Positions 40,161-48,413 of a stretch of 64,000 nt of DNA are shown one piece after another (within the stretch, counting starts at the first letter, position 1; each line of letters starts with the position of its first letter). The stretch comes from a virus. Under the pieces are notes generated by a model that did no database searches, was not told the origin of the DNA, and worked only from the letters and a program-made list of their open reading frames with translations. The DNA lies in IMG/VR virus record IMGVR_UViG_3300050821_002122, positions 125,690 through 189,689 of that record. The stretch is one strand, 5' to 3'. The translations under genes and the position numbers were made by a program.

Positions 40161-40722
40161 TAATCAAAGCATGAGCCACACTTCGACTCCTCGGGAGTTC
40201 GTGCGTGGCGAAATTGACCCAGCACTGTCCAAGTCACTCGATGCGCGGTTCGCCGCAGGCAACGTGTACGGGCCTGGGGCACTGATCAGATCAGCATATT
40301 GGCCTAATCTGCGTGGCACCTATGCATCGATCCTGAACGCCTTCGAGCGTCCGATTCAGCACAAACTGGAACTTCGCTATCAGGCGCTGCGTACCCCTGA
40401 GGGTAAGTACACTATCTCCGAGTTTCCAGAGTACGAATTCGACGGCGTTGATTTGGAACGCAGTGTCGTCGAATACCTGTACAACACGCGAATCGTCGGC
40501 AAGCTCATGTGCCCGTGGCCGCAGAACGACGAGGTTCTGCCGTACTCTGTACTTGTCACCGTACCTGAGTTCATGACCATTCGCCTGCTCAGAATGAATT
40601 GGGAACTGGCTCAGGTTTACATGGAGGCGCAGCGAATCGTCGCCAAACAAAAGGCGAAGGAACCGAAGGTAGTAAATACGGATCAAGAAGCAAACGATAC
40701 GTCTTTTTCTTTACCTCCGTAA
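40153..40722 (+). CDS. Hypothetical protein (189 aa)
   Basis: ORF overlapping the upstream stop. Confidence 0.7.
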   Translation: MNNNQSMSHTSTPREFVRGEIDPALSKSLDARFAAGNVYGPGALIRSAYWPNLRGTYASILNAFERPIQHKLELRYQALRTPEGKYTISEFPEYEFDGVDLERSVVEYLYNTRIVGKLMCPWPQNDEVLPYSVLVTVPEFMTIRLLRMNWELAQVYMEAQRIVAKQKAKEPKVVNTDQEANDTSFSLPP

Positions 40723-40744
40723 ACCGTGCCTAGTAAATAAGTCA

Positions 40745-40902
40745 TGAGAGTTAGCTTATTGGATAAAGCGATACTACGGCAGCATAAGTCTTGCACCGAT
40801 ACGATCCGCCGGCCTGCAGCTCGTCGAGCGCGGCAATAAAGACCGAGTCACCGCTAGCAGCAATCCGATGTATAGAAGGTAGTTCGATTCTCCCACTCTC
40901 GC
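40745..40902 (+). ncRNA. tRNA-shaped RNA with ~86 extra nt in the anticodon arm
   Basis: Acceptor TGAGAGT/ACTCTCG, D-arm GCTT-ATTGGATA-AAGC, ATAC/GTAT stem, T-arm GGTAG-TTCGATT-CTCCC; flanked by TAGTAAATA at 40731 and 40904. Confidence 0.6.
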
Positions 40903-40929
40903 CTAGTAAATAAGTAGTGTGCAGTTTAT

Positions 40930-41008
<79 letters not shown>

Positions 41009-41081
41009 AGTTTTTGCAGGGTAGTAAATTAAGGTTGCAGGGACGTTTGTGAGTGTCGAAAACTCTCAACCATAAAAGGAG

Positions 41082-41708
41082 GTGCTTTTGAGTCTTCCAA
41101 TAATGGTCAGAGCCGAACAACTTATCGCTGTTTCCGAGGCAGGTTTAAATAAAGATCATACTGACGTATGGTACTTAAAATGGATACGCCTCCGTAATAG
41201 CTCAAAGAGACGTGGATTATCTTGTCATCTTAGTTTTGCTCAGTACCTTAAAAAGGCAGTATCAGCGGGAATTAAAAATCCTGATGAAATAGGGATACGA
41301 AAACATCAATATAATCTAGGGAGGTTTGGCGACAAAGGTAACTATACAAAAGCAAACTGTAGATTTATTACAGTGGTTCAAAACAGAAGGGAGTCATGCT
41401 TAAATGGCGGAACTCAAGCTAGTTCCACTAAACAAAAGGGAAGATCAGCAGAGACACATAGCTATATAGCTAATCGCGCTGACGCATTATCTGGTAGAAC
41501 TAAACAGACTCACGAGTATCTGAATCGATCAGCAGTAAAGAGAAGTAAATCATTTAAGGTTAAGTCACCTTCCGGTGTTTATTACCGCGGAATAAATCTT
41601 AATGAGTTTTGTACGGCAAATGATCTAACGATGTCAGCTATGTCCCGTGTTTGTATGGGGAAAGCAGCACATCATAAAGGCTGGACAGGAAAATATTTGA
41701 AGGTGTAG
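41082..41708 (+). CDS. Putative homing endonuclease (HNH-like core, NUMOD-type C-terminus)
   Basis: LGRFGDKGNYTKANCRFITVVQN; C-terminal EFC..NDL...AMSRVC.GK..HHKGW; AT-rich codon usage; adjacent to the tRNA. Confidence 0.7.
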   Translation: MLLSLPIMVRAEQLIAVSEAGLNKDHTDVWYLKWIRLRNSSKRRGLSCHLSFAQYLKKAVSAGIKNPDEIGIRKHQYNLGRFGDKGNYTKANCRFITVVQNRRESCLNGGTQASSTKQKGRSAETHSYIANRADALSGRTKQTHEYLNRSAVKRSKSFKVKSPSGVYYRGINLNEFCTANDLTMSAMSRVCMGKAAHHKGWTGKYLKV

Positions 41709-41765
41709 TAAATGGTAGTGTACTAACCCGGGTTCGTAGTTAAATCTCATATCAAGGAAACTGAA

Positions 41766-42584
41766 ATGCCTATCAAAAAATCGAAGTCGAAAGCCAAAGA
41801 CACCAAAAAGAAAGCCAAGGACAAGGCTCCGAAGCTGAGCAAGAAAGAGCTGAAAGCGCAGGCTGCGGCGGCCGAAGCGAAGGCAGCGAAGAAAAAAGGC
41901 AAGGGCAAGAAAGACAAAGCCGCCAAAGGCAAGAAAGCCAAGGCTCCTGAAGCGCCAGCCGCAAGCAACGGCAATCTGTTCCTGAGCATCACCGCTGCAA
42001 CGACTGCCGCATCGACCAAGGATGTCAAAGTCTCGGCAACGCACTACGAAGTCAACGGCCGGATCATTCCACGCGCCAGCGTCATCGCTGTCGTCGGTCT
42101 GACGATCTACCACAACGTCATCATCAACCTCGGCGGCATCGCCGACATGACCGAGAAAAAGGGCATCACTTGCTACGTGCTGGACGACGAGCAAAACGTG
42201 GTCGCCTTCGATCAGAGTCGCGTGTTCATCTCGGCTGACGGTCAACCCGTAGCCGCCGCAGACAGCGACGACGAAGACGGCGACGATGACGACCTGGAAG
42301 TCGATGAGGACGACGAAGAGGAAGACGAGGACGGCGAAGAAGAGTCCGAAGACGACGACGAAGAGGAAGAAGAGGACGACGAAGACGACGAGGAGGAAGA
42401 CGACGAAGAAGAGGAAGAGGAGGAAAAGCAGAAGAAAGGCAAGAAGGGCAAGAAAGCTGCCAAAGGCAAGAAAGGCAAAAAGTCCAAGAAAGACGAGGAC
42501 GAAGAGGAAGAGGAAGAAGACGATGAGGACGACGAAGACGACGACGGCGAGTCCGAAGACGGCGACGAAGAGTTCGACATCTAA
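41766..42584 (+). CDS. Low-complexity protein: Lys-rich ends, small globular core, long Asp/Glu tracts
   Basis: Composition directly visible; terminator 42593-42625. Confidence 0.8.
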   Translation: MPIKKSKSKAKDTKKKAKDKAPKLSKKELKAQAAAAEAKAAKKKGKGKKDKAAKGKKAKAPEAPAASNGNLFLSITAATTAASTKDVKVSATHYEVNGRIIPRASVIAVVGLTIYHNVIINLGGIADMTEKKGITCYVLDDEQNVVAFDQSRVFISADGQPVAAADSDDEDGDDDDLEVDEDDEEEDEDGEEESEDDDEEEEEDDEDDEEEDDEEEEEEEKQKKGKKGKKAAKGKKGKKSKKDEDEEEEEEDDEDDEDDDGESEDGDEEFDI

Positions 42585-42635: not shown

Positions 42636-43898
42636 GTGCGAATTTTGGCTACTAAACGACTAGAATACTTTGCTCTGTATTCTGAGAAGTGTTTGACATG
42701 CAAGCATTTGGTGGAGATCGGTAAGGTAGACAACCGAGATTGCCACTACAGTAAAGGAAACACAGAATGCCCAGCGTCTGAAGTTCGCCTGGTCATAGTA
42801 GGCGAAGCACTATCGTATGCTCAGCAGGTGATTGAAGCGCGTGATAAACGTCACGCTAAAAAAGAGGCGCGTTTGATGAAATATGTCGGCGCGCAATCCC
42901 AGGCTTTTAAGTCTCAGTTCTACGACTTCCTAGACAGAGGCGGCAAATCTAAATGAGGCCCGAGTAATGAACAACTCAACATCCAATAATAAAATCTGCA
43001 CATTCACCAAGATCAAAGCGTGGTATATGCCGGTCGACGCAGAGACCTATAAGCTTATGAAAGCGGCTGATGCACCATTGACCCGTGTTCATGAGAACAT
43101 GATGCCCACACTACTGATGCTGCTGAAGTCGCGCAAGCTGCGTGCCAAGGCAATAGACTTCAACGAAGCGCTACTCAATCCGTATCTCGATGAATTGGGC
43201 AGGCGTTGGCAGAAGAAACCACACCGCAAGGCAACGATTACGTCGTCCGTCTTAAAGTTTGAAACCGAACATGCATCAGCCGCAGAGCTAGCACGCGAAG
43301 CCATTCCGAAACTGGAGACTTCCCTGCGCCGCTTCTTCCAACGGTGGGGCTTCGTTGCTGAGTTTCAGACTTCCGAACATCGAGGCAAGATCAAGTTCCA
43401 TGTCTCATACAAATTCGACTCAAACAAAATGCCCATCATTCCACTGGTGGAAGAACCTGAGAGTCTGCCGCAGATACGTTTGAACCTCGGTTACGTACGC
43501 CTTACGCTCACACTCGGCTCGAAAGAGGTTGAGACCAACATTGCGCTCGCAGCAGGCACTGATTGGAATTCCATTCACACCTCACGCTGTCTGTATTCGC
43601 AGATCAGTGATGTGCGTGCCATGATCGGTGCGCTTGCAGGCATCGTGTCGAAAGACGAACACAACGGCGACAACAAGTTATGAACGCCCCCAAATATCGC
43701 CTACAGCGCGATCATCAGTTTCATCTATCTACGGACGGCAAGAACACACTCTGTGGTCTGAGTGGCGACAAGTTCATTGTCTACTCTTCCAACCACAGTG
43801 GACCGTGTACTTGCCGCAGATGCAAAATGCAACTGGGTAGATCAATCATAAATGGGGAATACGATGGTAAAGAAAGCGGAAAAGACGGCGGAATATAA
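42636..43898 (+). CDS. Hypothetical proteins (42636-42956, 42967-43683, 43680-43898)
   Basis: Packed ORFs; the first and last have Cys clusters. Confidence 0.65.
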
Positions 43899-43983
43899 TT
43901 CAAGCCACATCGAAGTGCAAGGTGGTCTGGAAGGTATCAAAACGGGATTAACCAATGCAATTTACCAACGTACAAAATCCTAA
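43864..43983 (+). pseudogene. Truncated duplicate of the GyrB-like N-terminus (39 aa)
   Basis: MVKKAEKTAEYNSSHIEVQGGLEGIK vs MKKTDKAADYNSSHITTHSGLDGIR at 44947; own GGGGA SD. Confidence 0.8.
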
Positions 43984-44030
43984 GTACGCAATTTAATGGC
44001 ATCGTCATTAAATGTATCTAGGTGACTGCT

Positions 44031-44960
44031 ATGAAGAAATGGAAATCAGTTCCAACTGGAGATATTGGCAACGTAGGTGACGCGGTCCGACTTGGACCGC
44101 GTGCTTACTTGAAAGCCGGTAATGGTAGATGGGGTCTCGTGATAGACAGGCGTTTGATAGCTCAAATCAAACGCCTGTATGTCGTTCAAGGTATGAACTT
44201 GCGTGAAGTAGCTGAACTTCTGGTTTTGCCAGGCCATCCAAACATAAGCCACAGCCTAGTGCAGAGAATATGCAATCAAGAAGGTTGGATACGTTCACAC
44301 TACGGTCGGCGTGAGGCTGCTTTGGCTTATCTCAAGAGGAATAAGAAGAAGATAGCCATCTTATTTACCAAACATGCCCTTACAGTTCGGGAGCTAGGAT
44401 TTGTTACAAATGTTAGAATACCATTTTTGTCTGAATTCATTTCTGACGATCTTGGTCTTAATAGAGATACCACAGGTATGCGTCCGATTAAGGATCGTGC
44501 CATCAATAGTAAAGAACTGCATATAGTTCCCAGAAATACATGGAATAGAATTCTTAGAACCGACCCAAACGATTTGACTGTAGCTGAGTACAAAGCAGCT
44601 ATTAGAAGACTGACTGATGTGGTGTACCGAAGATTCTTCAATGAGGCTCATAAGGAAAGAAACTATGATGTCCACGTAGACCATATTTTCTCTTTGAGTG
44701 ATGGGTACTACACCCGCAAAGGCGGTAAGCGCATAAAGCGCGATGAGGTTGTTCCATTTAAATATATGGTTCACCCAGAGAACATGCATATCGTCACACG
44801 CCAAGTAAATCTCTTGAAAGGTGAAAGATCAAACCACACCTTAGCACAACTTATAAAGAAAGTAGAAGCCTCTTCAATTCAACTCAAACCCATTAATCGC
44901 CGCAAAGAATTACGCGTAATGGCAAATAAGATAAATCTGGAGCCTTATGAAGAAGACTGA
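44031..44960 (+). CDS. Free-standing HNH homing endonuclease with an N-terminal HTH
   Basis: HVDHIF...HPENMHIVTRQVNLLKG; upstream hairpin 43991-44013; AT-rich. Confidence 0.8.
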   Translation: MKKWKSVPTGDIGNVGDAVRLGPRAYLKAGNGRWGLVIDRRLIAQIKRLYVVQGMNLREVAELLVLPGHPNISHSLVQRICNQEGWIRSHYGRREAALAYLKRNKKKIAILFTKHALTVRELGFVTNVRIPFLSEFISDDLGLNRDTTGMRPIKDRAINSKELHIVPRNTWNRILRTDPNDLTVAEYKAAIRRLTDVVYRRFFNEAHKERNYDVHVDHIFSLSDGYYTRKGGKRIKRDEVVPFKYMVHPENMHIVTRQVNLLKGERSNHTLAQLIKKVEASSIQLKPINRRKELRVMANKINLEPYEED

Positions 44961-46923
44961 TAAAGCTGCTGATTATAATAGCAGTCACATAACTACACAC
45001 AGCGGACTTGATGGGATTCGAGTCAACCCGTCAATGTACCTCGGTAGTACCGGCGTCGATGGCGTCTACAAGTCGCTGGGCGAACTGACGGACAACGGCG
45101 TCGATGAGTACCTCGCTGGCCGCAACAAAGCGATTCGTGTACACATCGATGCGGACGGTTCGTACTGGGTGCTGGATCAGGGTAACGGTATTCCGCAAGG
45201 AACCAAAGAGGTGCATATGCATGTCAATGGAAAAGATATCGTCAACAAGCTGCCCACGATGCAGGCAGTGTTCGGTGAGCTACACACCTCGGGCAAGTAT
45301 CGCTCTGACGCCTACAAGACTTCGATTGGTACGCACGGTATCGGATCAAAGGGCACCAACGCCACCGCTGAATACTTTGATGTCAATACGTTCTACAAGA
45401 ACGAGTGGTACTCGATTGGATTCAAACGTGGCAAGCTTACGTCGAAGGTCCAGAAACTCAAGAAGGCACCGAAGGGACCAGACGGAAGCCTGAAGAGCGG
45501 TACGTGTATTCACTTCAAACCTGATGCGAAGATATTCTCAGTCACATCGTTCCCAACTTCCATGCTTGTCGAATGGGCGAAGGTTACGTCGTATCTGAAT
45601 CCTGGGCTCGCCATCGTGTTGTCAGGCAATCTGAAAGGCCAGAAAACGAAAGGCGGTCGTCTGGTCTTCTTGTCCAAGAAAGGACCGATCGAATACGTTG
45701 AGAAGCGTATTGCAGAATTAAAAACCGAGATGATCGGCAAGGGCAAAGTTTTTGAGTACAAATCCGATTTAGCTGATGTGGTCGTCGCGTTCACGATCCA
45801 TGATTCGGCTGATATACGAGGCTTTACGAATGGTCTGTCGAACAAAGAGGGCGGTACGCACGTTACATCGATTGTCGATGCGCTATACGACGGGCTATGT
45901 ATTGCACTCAAGGCTGCAGGCAAAGAGAAACTGGTGTTTGCGAAGCCAAAGAAAGGCGAGAAGGGCAAACGCACGGTATTCAAGACAGCCGACTTCAAAG
46001 AGGGCCTCGTAGGCCTCATCAATGCGAAATTGCACAAAGCAGAATTCTCATCGCAAGATAAGGGCAAGCTGACTGATGCGCGGATGGCGAAAGACTTTCT
46101 TGCGTTGGCCACCAAAGCAGCCACCGAGTTCTTTGCGAAGAATCCGAAGCTAGCGGCTACCTTGGCCGAACGCGCTGCCAAATTGGCGGCCCTAAAGTTC
46201 AACTTTGCGAACTCCAAGAAGCTGGTGGCATCACTCAATCAGCTCAAGCGCAAGGGTATGCCTACGAAGTTCATGCCAGCGTTGAGCGACACGAAGGTAA
46301 AAGACCGCGAACTGTTCATCGTCGAAGGTGATTCGGCAGGCGGCCCAGCTAAGCAAGCGCGCTTCCCGTGGCAGGCTGTATTGCCCATCAAGGGCAAGAT
46401 CAGCAACGTCATCAAGATGAAGGGTGACAAAGGACTGGACTCCGAAGACATCCTCCATATACTGGCGGCATCGGGCTTCGATCCGAAAGCCGCTGACCCT
46501 TATGCAAAAATGACGGTCAGTAAAATAATACTGTTAGCCGATCCAGACCCGGACGGCTGGCACATTAACAGTCTTCTGTTGGCTTTGTACTACAAGTTTA
46601 TGCCTGAGGCATTTGCACGTGGCATGATTTACGTGGCTCGCACGCCGGAGTTCTATGCAATCCACGGCGGGAACCTATATCTGGATAATGGCGCGCAGGC
46701 GCTGCGTAAGAAACTCGCAGCAGCCAAGGTACCGAAGACCGCTGTCGTGAATCACATCAAAGGCTGGGGTGAAATCAACCCAGTGCTGATGCGTATTCTG
46801 GCAATGGATGCATCAACCAGAACCTTGATTCAGATCGAATCACTGACGGACGCGGACGAGAAGTTCCGCAAGCTGATGGCTGACGACACCGAAGAGCGCA
46901 AGCAACTGATGGGGGTACAATGA
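44947..46923 (+). CDS. gyrB: Type IIA topoisomerase subunit B (GyrB/ParE-like)
   Basis: ELTDNGVDE, DQGNGIP, GTHGIG, EGDSAGG, PIKGK, DPDPDG, KGWGE. Confidence 0.96.
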   Translation: MKKTDKAADYNSSHITTHSGLDGIRVNPSMYLGSTGVDGVYKSLGELTDNGVDEYLAGRNKAIRVHIDADGSYWVLDQGNGIPQGTKEVHMHVNGKDIVNKLPTMQAVFGELHTSGKYRSDAYKTSIGTHGIGSKGTNATAEYFDVNTFYKNEWYSIGFKRGKLTSKVQKLKKAPKGPDGSLKSGTCIHFKPDAKIFSVTSFPTSMLVEWAKVTSYLNPGLAIVLSGNLKGQKTKGGRLVFLSKKGPIEYVEKRIAELKTEMIGKGKVFEYKSDLADVVVAFTIHDSADIRGFTNGLSNKEGGTHVTSIVDALYDGLCIALKAAGKEKLVFAKPKKGEKGKRTVFKTADFKEGLVGLINAKLHKAEFSSQDKGKLTDARMAKDFLALATKAATEFFAKNPKLAATLAERAAKLAALKFNFANSKKLVASLNQLKRKGMPTKFMPALSDTKVKDRELFIVEGDSAGGPAKQARFPWQAVLPIKGKISNVIKMKGDKGLDSEDILHILAASGFDPKAADPYAKMTVSKIILLADPDPDGWHINSLLLALYYKFMPEAFARGMIYVARTPEFYAIHGGNLYLDNGAQALRKKLAAAKVPKTAVVNHIKGWGEINPVLMRILAMDASTRTLIQIESLTDADEKFRKLMADDTEERKQLMGVQ

Positions 46924-48413
46924 GCAAGAAAGAGAAAGTGAATAGTGGTCTGAAGGCTCGTACCATTCGACAAAGCATCACCGCATTTGGCATGCGGGCC
47001 CTCAAGCTCTACGGCGATGAGGTGAACTTGGACCGAGCGACGTTGGATATCGGCGATGGCTTGAAGCCAGTTGCGCGTCGCATTGCCTACGGCTCATCGC
47101 AAGTAGCGAAAGAGAAATTCGCCAAGTCTGCACAGATCGTTGGTCACGTGATGGGTGTCTATCATCCTCACGGCGATAGCTCGATCTACGGCGCAATGAT
47201 TACGATGGTCAACTCATGCACGCCACTGATGCATGGTGACGGTAACTGGGGATCGATGCTGGACGGTGCAGGCGCCATGCGCTACACCAATGCGCGTCTT
47301 TCGCACTTCGGCAGAACTGGCTTCGATCCGAACTACATCAATCCGGCTGTCACATCGATGGTACCGAACTACGATGACAAGACTCTGGAACCTGTCAGCA
47401 TCCCGTTCCCATTGCCCGTCGTGTTGTTCAATGGTGGTGAAGGCATCGGCTATGCTACGGCATCCAATCTGCCGGCATTCACGCCTGATTCGGTGGTAGA
47501 GATTCTGAAACGAATGCTCAAGGGTGAGAAGTTGAAGGTAGCCGACTTCGCAAAGACGTTGAAGCCGGTCTACAAGTGGGGCGGTGAATTTGTCAACACG
47601 AAAGAGAATAAGGCTGCGTGGCTTGAGATGTTCACCTCGAACAAAGCCTCCGTTCAGTTCCAAAGCCCATTGATGGTCGATACTGCAAAGCGTACTATCG
47701 TCATCAACGAGTGGGTGAACGGTTTGAACGTGCTGAAGTTCATCGACTGGTGCAAGGCTCTCCCAGAAGTGCAGAGCGCGCATCCTACGAAAGGCACAAC
47801 CGAGTTCACTATCACGCTGAAAAAAGGCTACAACTCGGTCCAATTCGATTCGTTGGTCAAGAAGGTCCAACTCAAGACACGCTGCCGAACCTCGTTCAAC
47901 ATTAACGTTACTTCGCGCAAGGCCATCGTCAATGACGGTGTGGTTGATTATGAGGTAGCTTTGTTGAGTCTATCCGTACCGCAGCTTGTGCTGGCGTGGT
48001 TGCGCTATCGCATTGAGGTCGAAACCAAGAGCCTCACATATCGGATTGCAAAGCAGGACGAACTGATCGCCTACAGTGAATTGCTGATCTATGCTGCGTC
48101 GAAACTCGATGTCATCATACCGATCATCAAGAAGTCGAAACAGCCGCGCGTTGACTTGGCGGCGAAGCTCAAGATCACCGAGCAGCAGGCCGATCAAATT
48201 CTCGATCTAACGCTGCGCAAGCTGACGCGGTTGGACCAAGACGAAATTGAGGCGCGTCGCAAAGAACAGATCAAGCATCTCAAGCAATTGAAAGAGTGGC
48301 TGGCGAAGCCCAAGCGGAAGGTCGCTGCGGATATTGATCTAGCGATGGAGGCGATCAAAGCGGATCGTGACTACGCGAAAAAAGCAGCGACACAGGTCCT
48401 GAAGGTTGCTTAA
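46920..48413 (+). CDS. gyrA: Type IIA topoisomerase subunit A (GyrA/ParC-like), no C-terminal beta-pinwheel
   Basis: DGLKPVARR, YHPHGDSSIY, catalytic AMRYT; only 497 aa. Confidence 0.96.
   Translation: MSKKEKVNSGLKARTIRQSITAFGMRALKLYGDEVNLDRATLDIGDGLKPVARRIAYGSSQVAKEKFAKSAQIVGHVMGVYHPHGDSSIYGAMITMVNSCTPLMHGDGNWGSMLDGAGAMRYTNARLSHFGRTGFDPNYINPAVTSMVPNYDDKTLEPVSIPFPLPVVLFNGGEGIGYATASNLPAFTPDSVVEILKRMLKGEKLKVADFAKTLKPVYKWGGEFVNTKENKAAWLEMFTSNKASVQFQSPLMVDTAKRTIVINEWVNGLNVLKFIDWCKALPEVQSAHPTKGTTEFTITLKKGYNSVQFDSLVKKVQLKTRCRTSFNINVTSRKAIVNDGVVDYEVALLSLSVPQLVLAWLRYRIEVETKSLTYRIAKQDELIAYSELLIYAASKLDVIIPIIKKSKQPRVDLAAKLKITEQQADQILDLTLRKLTRLDQDEIEARRKEQIKHLKQLKEWLAKPKRKVAADIDLAMEAIKADRDYAKKAATQVLKVA

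Follow-up and report, generated by a model that had tools for sequence, protein, structure and literature searches.

How does a phage keep a topoisomerase gene working when a nuclease gene is inserted within its first codons? This question is raised by the 5′ end of a gyrB-like gene, which codes for the large subunit of a type II DNA topoisomerase (topo II), in a 64,000-nucleotide (nt) stretch of viral DNA. This whole stretch (positions 125,690 to 189,689 of IMG/VR virus record IMGVR_UViG_3300050821_002122) is referred to here as the window. The record, of 189.7 kb, belongs to a large soil phage, and the gyrB region of the window showed distant DNA-level similarity to Ralstonia phage RSL1 and Burkholderia phage BCSR5. 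We consider it probable that the nuclease gene is part of a free-standing homing endonuclease cassette, which can do without splicing, since it brings a replacement 5′ end of gyrB with it. On the best reading of the comparisons, the cassette would target the topo II large-subunit gene of RSL1-like jumbo phages and be specialised for its first ~25 codons. It would consist of a conserved spacer hairpin, a gene for an HNH-like nuclease, and a replacement copy of those codons. The insertion would strand the phage’s own first ~25 codons upstream as a short open reading frame (ORF), and the working gene would be read unspliced, from the replacement start directly into the native body.

The features of this locus lie on the plus strand. 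The displaced ORF begins with ATG at 43864 and codes for 39 amino acids (aa) in total. Its first 26 codons (43864–43941) form a GyrB-like segment, called the arm below, and are followed by 13 unrelated codons outside the homology and a TAA at 43981–43983 (tail, 43942–43983). The displaced arm showed 57% identity to residues 3–25 of GyrB from L002, a nuclease-free relative (BLASTP, single comparison, E = 7e-8), and scored 26 bits against an arm profile built from related phages. By this homology, the remnant is a true GyrB N-terminus and not a chance match. It retains its own start codon and a G-rich ribosome site. The nuclease ORF (44031–44960, 309 aa) is free-standing, and its ATG at 44031 is the start common to all homologs in the alignment. 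The second gyrB start lies within the nuclease ORF, where a segment of 25 codons (44947–45021), preceded by GGAG at 44938–44941, was assigned as the replacement from codon choice and from GC content at third codon positions (GC3). It leads into the gene body (45022–46923), assigned as native from Pfam, PHROG, and GC3. The resulting working ORF (44947–46923) codes for 658 aa and overlaps the nuclease ORF by 14 nt. The large subunit matched the Pfam domains DNA_gyraseB, Toprim, GyrB C-terminal, and HATPase_c, and PHROG 543 at 5.5e-125. GC content was 0.37–0.44 across ~43850–45015 vs. 0.50–0.59 in the flanks, a fall from ~0.52 to ~0.40. The initial annotation of the window had described the 39-aa ORF, the nuclease ORF, and a gyrB restart whose Shine–Dalgarno sequence and ATG overlap the nuclease 3′ end, and all of these features were found as described.

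The same arrangement was observed in related phages. A metagenome scan gave four further distinct nuclease loci, L003, L005, L006, and L007, whose nucleases share 42%, 37%, 35%, and 30% identity, respectively, with that of the window. L003 and L004 are identical across the element and were therefore counted as one locus. Scans of the viral-contig and genome-contig collections for the nuclease gave nothing besides the window’s own record. In each locus, the nuclease lies directly 5′ of the topo II large-subunit gene, and a short GyrB arm with its own ATG lies just 5′ of the nuclease. The order of displaced start, spacer, nuclease, and replacement start is common to the window, L003/L004, L005, L006, and L007, with two qualifications: the displaced arm of L007 is fused in frame to the nuclease with no spacer, and the L006 contig ends before the replacement start and gene body. 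The displaced start has an ATG and a frame open up to the junction in all five loci.

The arm profile gave two matches per nuclease-bearing locus (one in the contig-limited L006) and a single match in each of 16 distinct nuclease-free relatives. The initial annotation had named the presence of both N-termini in nuclease-free relatives as a finding that would speak against its proposal; none of these relatives carries both. Homology of the displaced arm stops within ~3 codons of one position in all five loci. In one gyrB clade the codons just before the insertion point are of GLEG type, and in the other they are of RFP type. The target predicted earlier, around GLEG|IR, proved right to within ~3 codons across the five loci. 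On this comparison, the architecture is conserved across the whole nuclease lineage and is not a single event. The core of the initial annotation, that the element supplies a replacement start for the gene it disrupts and needs no splicing, is supported by the conserved layout and by the single starts of the nuclease-free relatives, and it holds family-wide.

The two copies of the gyrB start differ in character. The displaced copy was nearer than the replacement to the nearest nuclease-free sister in four of the four two-copy loci. Over 17 positions, similarity to the sister’s start was 11 vs. 8 in the window, where the sister is L002, and 9 vs. 7, 11 vs. 9, and 12 vs. 9 in the others. GC3 of the replacement segment was 0.32 in the window and 0.40, 0.38, and 0.48 in the other three loci, compared with body values of 0.63, 0.60, 0.64, and 0.71, respectively; the window nuclease has a GC3 of 0.39. 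The drop in GC3 from body to start was 0.20–0.31 in the nuclease-bearing genes and 0–0.21 (mean ~0.09) in ten nuclease-free genes. Residues common to both copies are mostly spelled with different codons (9 of 13 in the window, 9 of 13 and 11 of 11 in two other loci), L005 being the exception with 2 of 10. The nuclease C-terminus is conserved where the replacement start has its GGAG and ATG in the other frame. In one homolog, His (CAT) stands in place of Tyr (TAT) at the nuclease C-terminus and the ATG is still kept. Judged by identity and composition, the displaced copy is the native one, and the working copy is foreign in character with a nuclease-like composition.

The distribution of the nuclease among relatives is patchy. 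It is present or absent among close relatives and always at the same site in the five loci. In a gyrB-body tree obtained by a quick tree search, the four nuclease-bearing loci were scattered, each next to a nuclease-free sister, and four changes of state were needed. Nuclease-free sisters were recovered with support for the window (L002, 98), L005 (phiRSL1, 100), and L007 (L013, 87). This distribution fits homing, and it also fits repeated clean loss, which would be easy by recombination because the arm copies are direct repeats. Nuclease relationships broadly follow the gyrB clades, so transfers, if any, would have been mostly among kin.

The nuclease protein was characterised by sequence and by structural modelling. 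The 309-aa product has six homologs in a large protein collection with 35–71% identity. D217-H218, N251, N260, and K263 are invariant across the alignment, giving a DH...N...N..K pattern. These residues fit an HNH pattern whose last position is occupied by Asn, as is the case in I-HmuI. All nuclease ORFs of the family are intact, with the catalytic-type residues invariant. No Pfam model, the HNH models included, matched the nuclease; PHROG 1035 (endonuclease VII) was matched weakly by five of seven family members, the best at E = 2.6e-4. The AlphaFold model of the nuclease had a mean predicted local distance difference test (pLDDT) score of 78 and showed helix-turn-helix modules in its N-terminal half. 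Phage homing endonucleases are usually built in this way. The top match of the helix-turn-helix module was the GcrA DNA-binding domain (Z 7.4), followed by small-terminase, Myb, and Tc3-type bipartite domains. The nuclease domain covers approximately residues 205–285, and the C-terminal domain modelled alone gave a pLDDT of 84. Its top fold match, a weak one, was the Gme HNH nickase 4h9d (Z 3.8, root-mean-square deviation 4.1, 68 aligned residues), and other His-Me finger nucleases gave Z 2.5–3, I-HmuI among them (Z 2.6). Foldseek found no significant match for either the whole model or the C-terminal domain. A sequence search of the PDB returned gp41 matches only, which were spurious and were discarded. 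A full-library profile search gave 248 clusters at E ≤ 1e-3 and 22 at E ≤ 1e-30, with the nuclease domain recurring behind varied helix-turn-helix, CapR, and zinc-finger modules. The motif pattern and the weak PHROG and structural matches weakly indicate an HNH-like (His-Me finger) nuclease. The HNH label given in the initial annotation stands in this qualified form, on the motif pattern, PHROG 1035, and the structural matches, but finds no backing from a Pfam model.

The spacer between displaced ORF and nuclease suggests how the cassette might be expressed. The non-coding spacer is 48–95 nt long and is missing in L007. In four loci it contains invariant sequence blocks and a conserved hairpin (43979–44022 in the window), delimited from the four-locus comparison and from folds. 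The hairpin consensus has 9 pairs, 2 of them with compensatory changes, and its 3′ arm contains the nuclease ribosome site. Single-sequence folds gave z = −1.5 to −3.6. The displaced ORF terminates within the hairpin’s 5′ arm in the window, 2 nt before that arm in L003, 1–2 nt before it in L006, and in the hairpin loop in L005. Together, a hairpin that covers the nuclease ribosome site and a displaced ORF that ends at this hairpin suggest that the two are coupled in translation, and the displaced start may still serve for translation of the nuclease. Such coupling would account for the ATG and open frame retained by the displaced starts of all loci. At the other end of the nuclease, the working gyrB start overlaps the nuclease stop by 14, 8, and 8 nt in three loci and lies 3 nt after it in a fourth.

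The window spacer is ~40 nt longer than that of the other loci. At 43950–43995, part of the conserved motif is repeated, with GCAATTTA occurring twice, which suggests a small local duplication. A promoter-like motif, YAGTAAATA (one mismatch allowed), occurs 36 times in the window vs. 18 expected and is clustered at 40670–41714 on the plus strand; it was not found in front of the nuclease or either gyrB start. The scan for sigma-70 promoters and terminators gave nothing relevant.

Taken as a homing cassette, these parts would work as follows. The nuclease would cleave nuclease-free alleles near the junction codons, and repair from a nuclease-bearing genome would copy in the spacer, the nuclease, and the replacement start. 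The upstream gene and the displaced start would serve as left homology and the gene body as right homology. The carrier would be spared, as its left half-site is re-spelled in the working copy and is parted from the right half in the displaced copy. Ribosomes loaded at the original gyrB site would finish the displaced ORF at the hairpin and unmask the nuclease ribosome site, and the replacement gyrB start would in turn be coupled to nuclease termination. The design probably first arose by one-sided, illegitimate repair: a donor nuclease upstream of gyrB would have been copied together with the donor gene start into a break in the recipient gene. A further step, that the lineage is long-lived and actively homing and that this relay makes topoisomerase synthesis depend on translating the selfish gene, is put forward only tentatively. 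If the relay is true, the cassette would be a natural phage ‘home-and-rescue’ drive, with the displaced start selected both as homology arm and as leader.

Several observations weigh against this account. The segments compared are short (17–25 codons) and each comparison of composition or identity is individually weak; the weight of the copy comparisons lies only in their consistency across independent loci. Both arm copies retain the functional Tyr/Ser/Ile pattern, so sequence alone cannot tell which copy enters the enzyme. In L005, a 21-nt run just left of the junction is identical in both copies, which differ mainly in two junction codons. This result indicates that recoding is incomplete there and that immunity would rest on the two junction codons. 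Covariation in the hairpin is modest (2 of 9 pairs), and fold support for the nuclease is weak (no Pfam match, Z 3.8). The nuclease tree also roughly follows the gyrB clades, which makes long vertical descent with repeated clean loss inseparable from repeated homing.

This congruence is what would be expected if the locus were the fossil of one faulty homing event, one-sided and illegitimate, since inherited vertically and no longer mobile, with the displaced start as a decaying piece of pseudogene. Such an event is also the most plausible origin of the design. As a description of the present lineage, we nevertheless regard the fossil as unlikely. At 30–42% nuclease identity, the five displaced starts keep their ATG and open frame and the nuclease ORFs remain intact. 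The nuclease-free sisters in three clades also argue against it, as does the sharp composition step at the right junction of the window, which points to recent arrival.

Less likely still is a self-splicing intron, of group I or another kind, carrying the nuclease ORF. The upstream 24–26 codons would then be exon 1, joined to the gene body by splicing, with the second start having arisen incidentally or acting as a backup. The intact displaced start with its ATG in five of five loci would agree with this, and HNH genes are well known in phage group I introns (I-HmuI, I-TevIII; PMC2988022). The bases at the borders would also allow it: the GGT at 43933–43935 and the ATT CGA at 45016–45021 pointed out in the initial annotation are present, so that a U ends the candidate exon 1 (43935) and a G precedes the candidate exon 2 (45015). 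Against this, Rfam gave no intron match in the window at E ≤ 10 or in L003, L005, L006, and L007 at E ≤ 1, in agreement across five loci with the earlier remark that no group I core was seen. The non-coding sequence available for an intron core amounts to the 48–95 nt of the spacer, and in L007, with the remnant fused to the nuclease, there is none. The 3′ end of the candidate intron is filled by two overlapping frames, and the replacement ATG and arm residues are conserved there. Elsewhere in L003, a sub-threshold group I intron match was obtained at 1842–2098 (33.8 bits vs. a gathering score of 50), and this weak Intron_gpI signal indicates that such RNAs are detectable in these phages. The surrounding region (L003:1592–2588) holds a tRNA (1592–1663) and a permuted transfer-messenger RNA (2219–2533, 97 bits), with the group I intron match between them.

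A tandem duplication of the gyrB 5′ end, independent of a nuclease that later landed between the copies, would account for the two flanking arm copies but is most improbable, as none of 16 nuclease-free relatives shows one and the downstream copy is like the nuclease in composition and partly lies within its coding sequence. An intein or split intein was rejected: no Hint or intein family was found, and stop codons part the nuclease from the host frame. In comparison with the split-intein ‘fractured gene’ arrangement (PMC2677866), the remnant runs on for just 13 codons beyond the homology, and the arm itself opens the replacement copy. The two copies stand in an intein-like in-frame relation in only two of four loci by their coordinates, which is the chance level. 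Ribosomal bypassing as in T4 gene 60 was dropped because the gap of ~1080 nt holds a complete gene.

The genes around the cassette were also compared. A conserved 238-aa gene (42967–43683), without a Pfam or PHROG match, lies upstream of gyrB. Its homologs in L002, L003, and L007 hold the same place, directly 5′ of either gyrB or the remnant. From this synteny, it is the likely left homology flank for homing. Between it and the displaced gyrB start lies a Cys-rich ORF of 72 aa (43680–43898), which overlaps that start by 35 nt. Neither Pfam nor PHROG gave a match for it, and L002 and L003 lack it at the matching position. L007 has a different ORF of 104 aa at this place, which shows that the spot upstream of gyrB is variable. 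Further upstream, a 272-aa protein (41766–42584) is rich in Lys and Ala in its N-terminal half, while its C-terminal half is a long poly-Asp/Glu tract; it is conserved at this position in L002, L003, and L007. Downstream, the gyrA-like gene for the topo II small subunit (46920–48413) matched Pfam DNA_topoisoIV at 2.3e-71.

Large in-frame inserts were seen in the topoisomerase genes of some relatives. The gyrA-like gene of L007 (L007:7919–9895) codes for 658 aa, compared with 497 aa in the window, owing to a ~160-aa in-frame insert right after the HPHGD motif. The insert has Cys first and His-Asn last, followed by Ser, and looks like a mini-intein. In L018 (1156–4518, one 1124-aa ORF), the arm lies ~1.8 kb 5′ of where window residue 128 aligns, and the gyrB ORFs of L020 and L025 have 1015 aa. 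The large gyrB inserts of L018, L020, and L025 are probably inteins, in which case gyrB in these phages would have been the target of several distinct kinds of invasion.

If the cassette reading is right, a homing endonuclease can colonise an essential phage coding sequence without intron, intein, or gene splitting, by carrying the piece that it displaces. This would widen the places in which to look for homing endonuclease genes. It would also explain short ‘orphan’ ORFs that mimic gene starts and are missed by annotation tracks. For annotation, the gyrB start should be placed at the downstream ATG and the upstream ORF recorded as a displaced remnant. The junction would mark the likely target of the nuclease to within a few codons, and the five diverged nuclease/target pairs offer a set for studying the co-evolution of specificity and target.

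We found no phage endonuclease carrying a replacement N-terminus described in the open-access literature. The closest precedent is the group of mobile endonuclease ORFs (mORFs) of fungal mitochondria, which create gene hybrids in Glomus atp6, atp9, cox2, and nad3 (PMC3630166). A hybrid formed by an mORF in atp6 of Allomyces macrogynus is attributed there to Paquin et al. 1994 (as cited in PMC3630166). The window case is the N-terminal mirror image of these elements; it works like an mORF but is not a member of the group. In both, the endonuclease ORF brings along a foreign copy of one end of the host gene, which is fused in frame to the gene body; the displaced native segment is nearer to relatives than the inserted one, and splicing is not needed. 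The mORFs replace the C-terminal end, whereas the gyrB cassette replaces the N-terminal end, and therefore a new translation start must also be supplied. The mORFs are mitochondrial and encode LAGLIDADG or GIY-YIG enzymes, while the gyrB cassette has an HNH-like enzyme in a jumbo phage. Unlike the displaced pieces of mORF-bearing genes, the displaced gyrB piece keeps its original start signals and may drive the nuclease. This mirror-image precedent, together with the lineage-wide conservation and the possible use of the displaced start, had been missed in the initial annotation.

The cassette also resembles the free-standing seg and mob endonucleases of T-even phages, such as MobE in Aeh1 nrdA and MobA in the T4 topoisomerase genes 39/60 (PMC2988022). 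In both cases a free-standing nuclease lies in or beside an essential gene of DNA metabolism, the topo II large subunit in the case of T4 mobA, and its distribution among relatives is patchy. Stop and start codons overlap in several of the free-standing endonuclease genes of T4, and hairpins hiding the ribosome site are described for I-TevI-III, segB, and Aeh1 mobE (PMC2988022). The ribosome-site hairpin and the start/stop overlaps of the gyrB cassette, which suggest translational coupling, are alike. In the T4-type cases, the gene is untouched or is split into two required polypeptides, whereas here the lost part would be replaced by a carried copy. The gyrB nuclease family is also unrelated in sequence to the Pfam HNH models.

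The HNH endonucleases of phage group I introns (I-HmuI of SPO1, I-TevIII) likewise interrupt an essential phage gene at a conserved codon. They differ from the gyrB cassette, which has no detected intron core and has a replacement start instead of splicing. Engineered ‘home-and-rescue’ or ‘cleave-and-rescue’ gene drives work by cutting an essential gene for which they supply a recoded rescue copy. The gyrB cassette would follow the same logic, but it is natural and would replace the first ~25 codons only.

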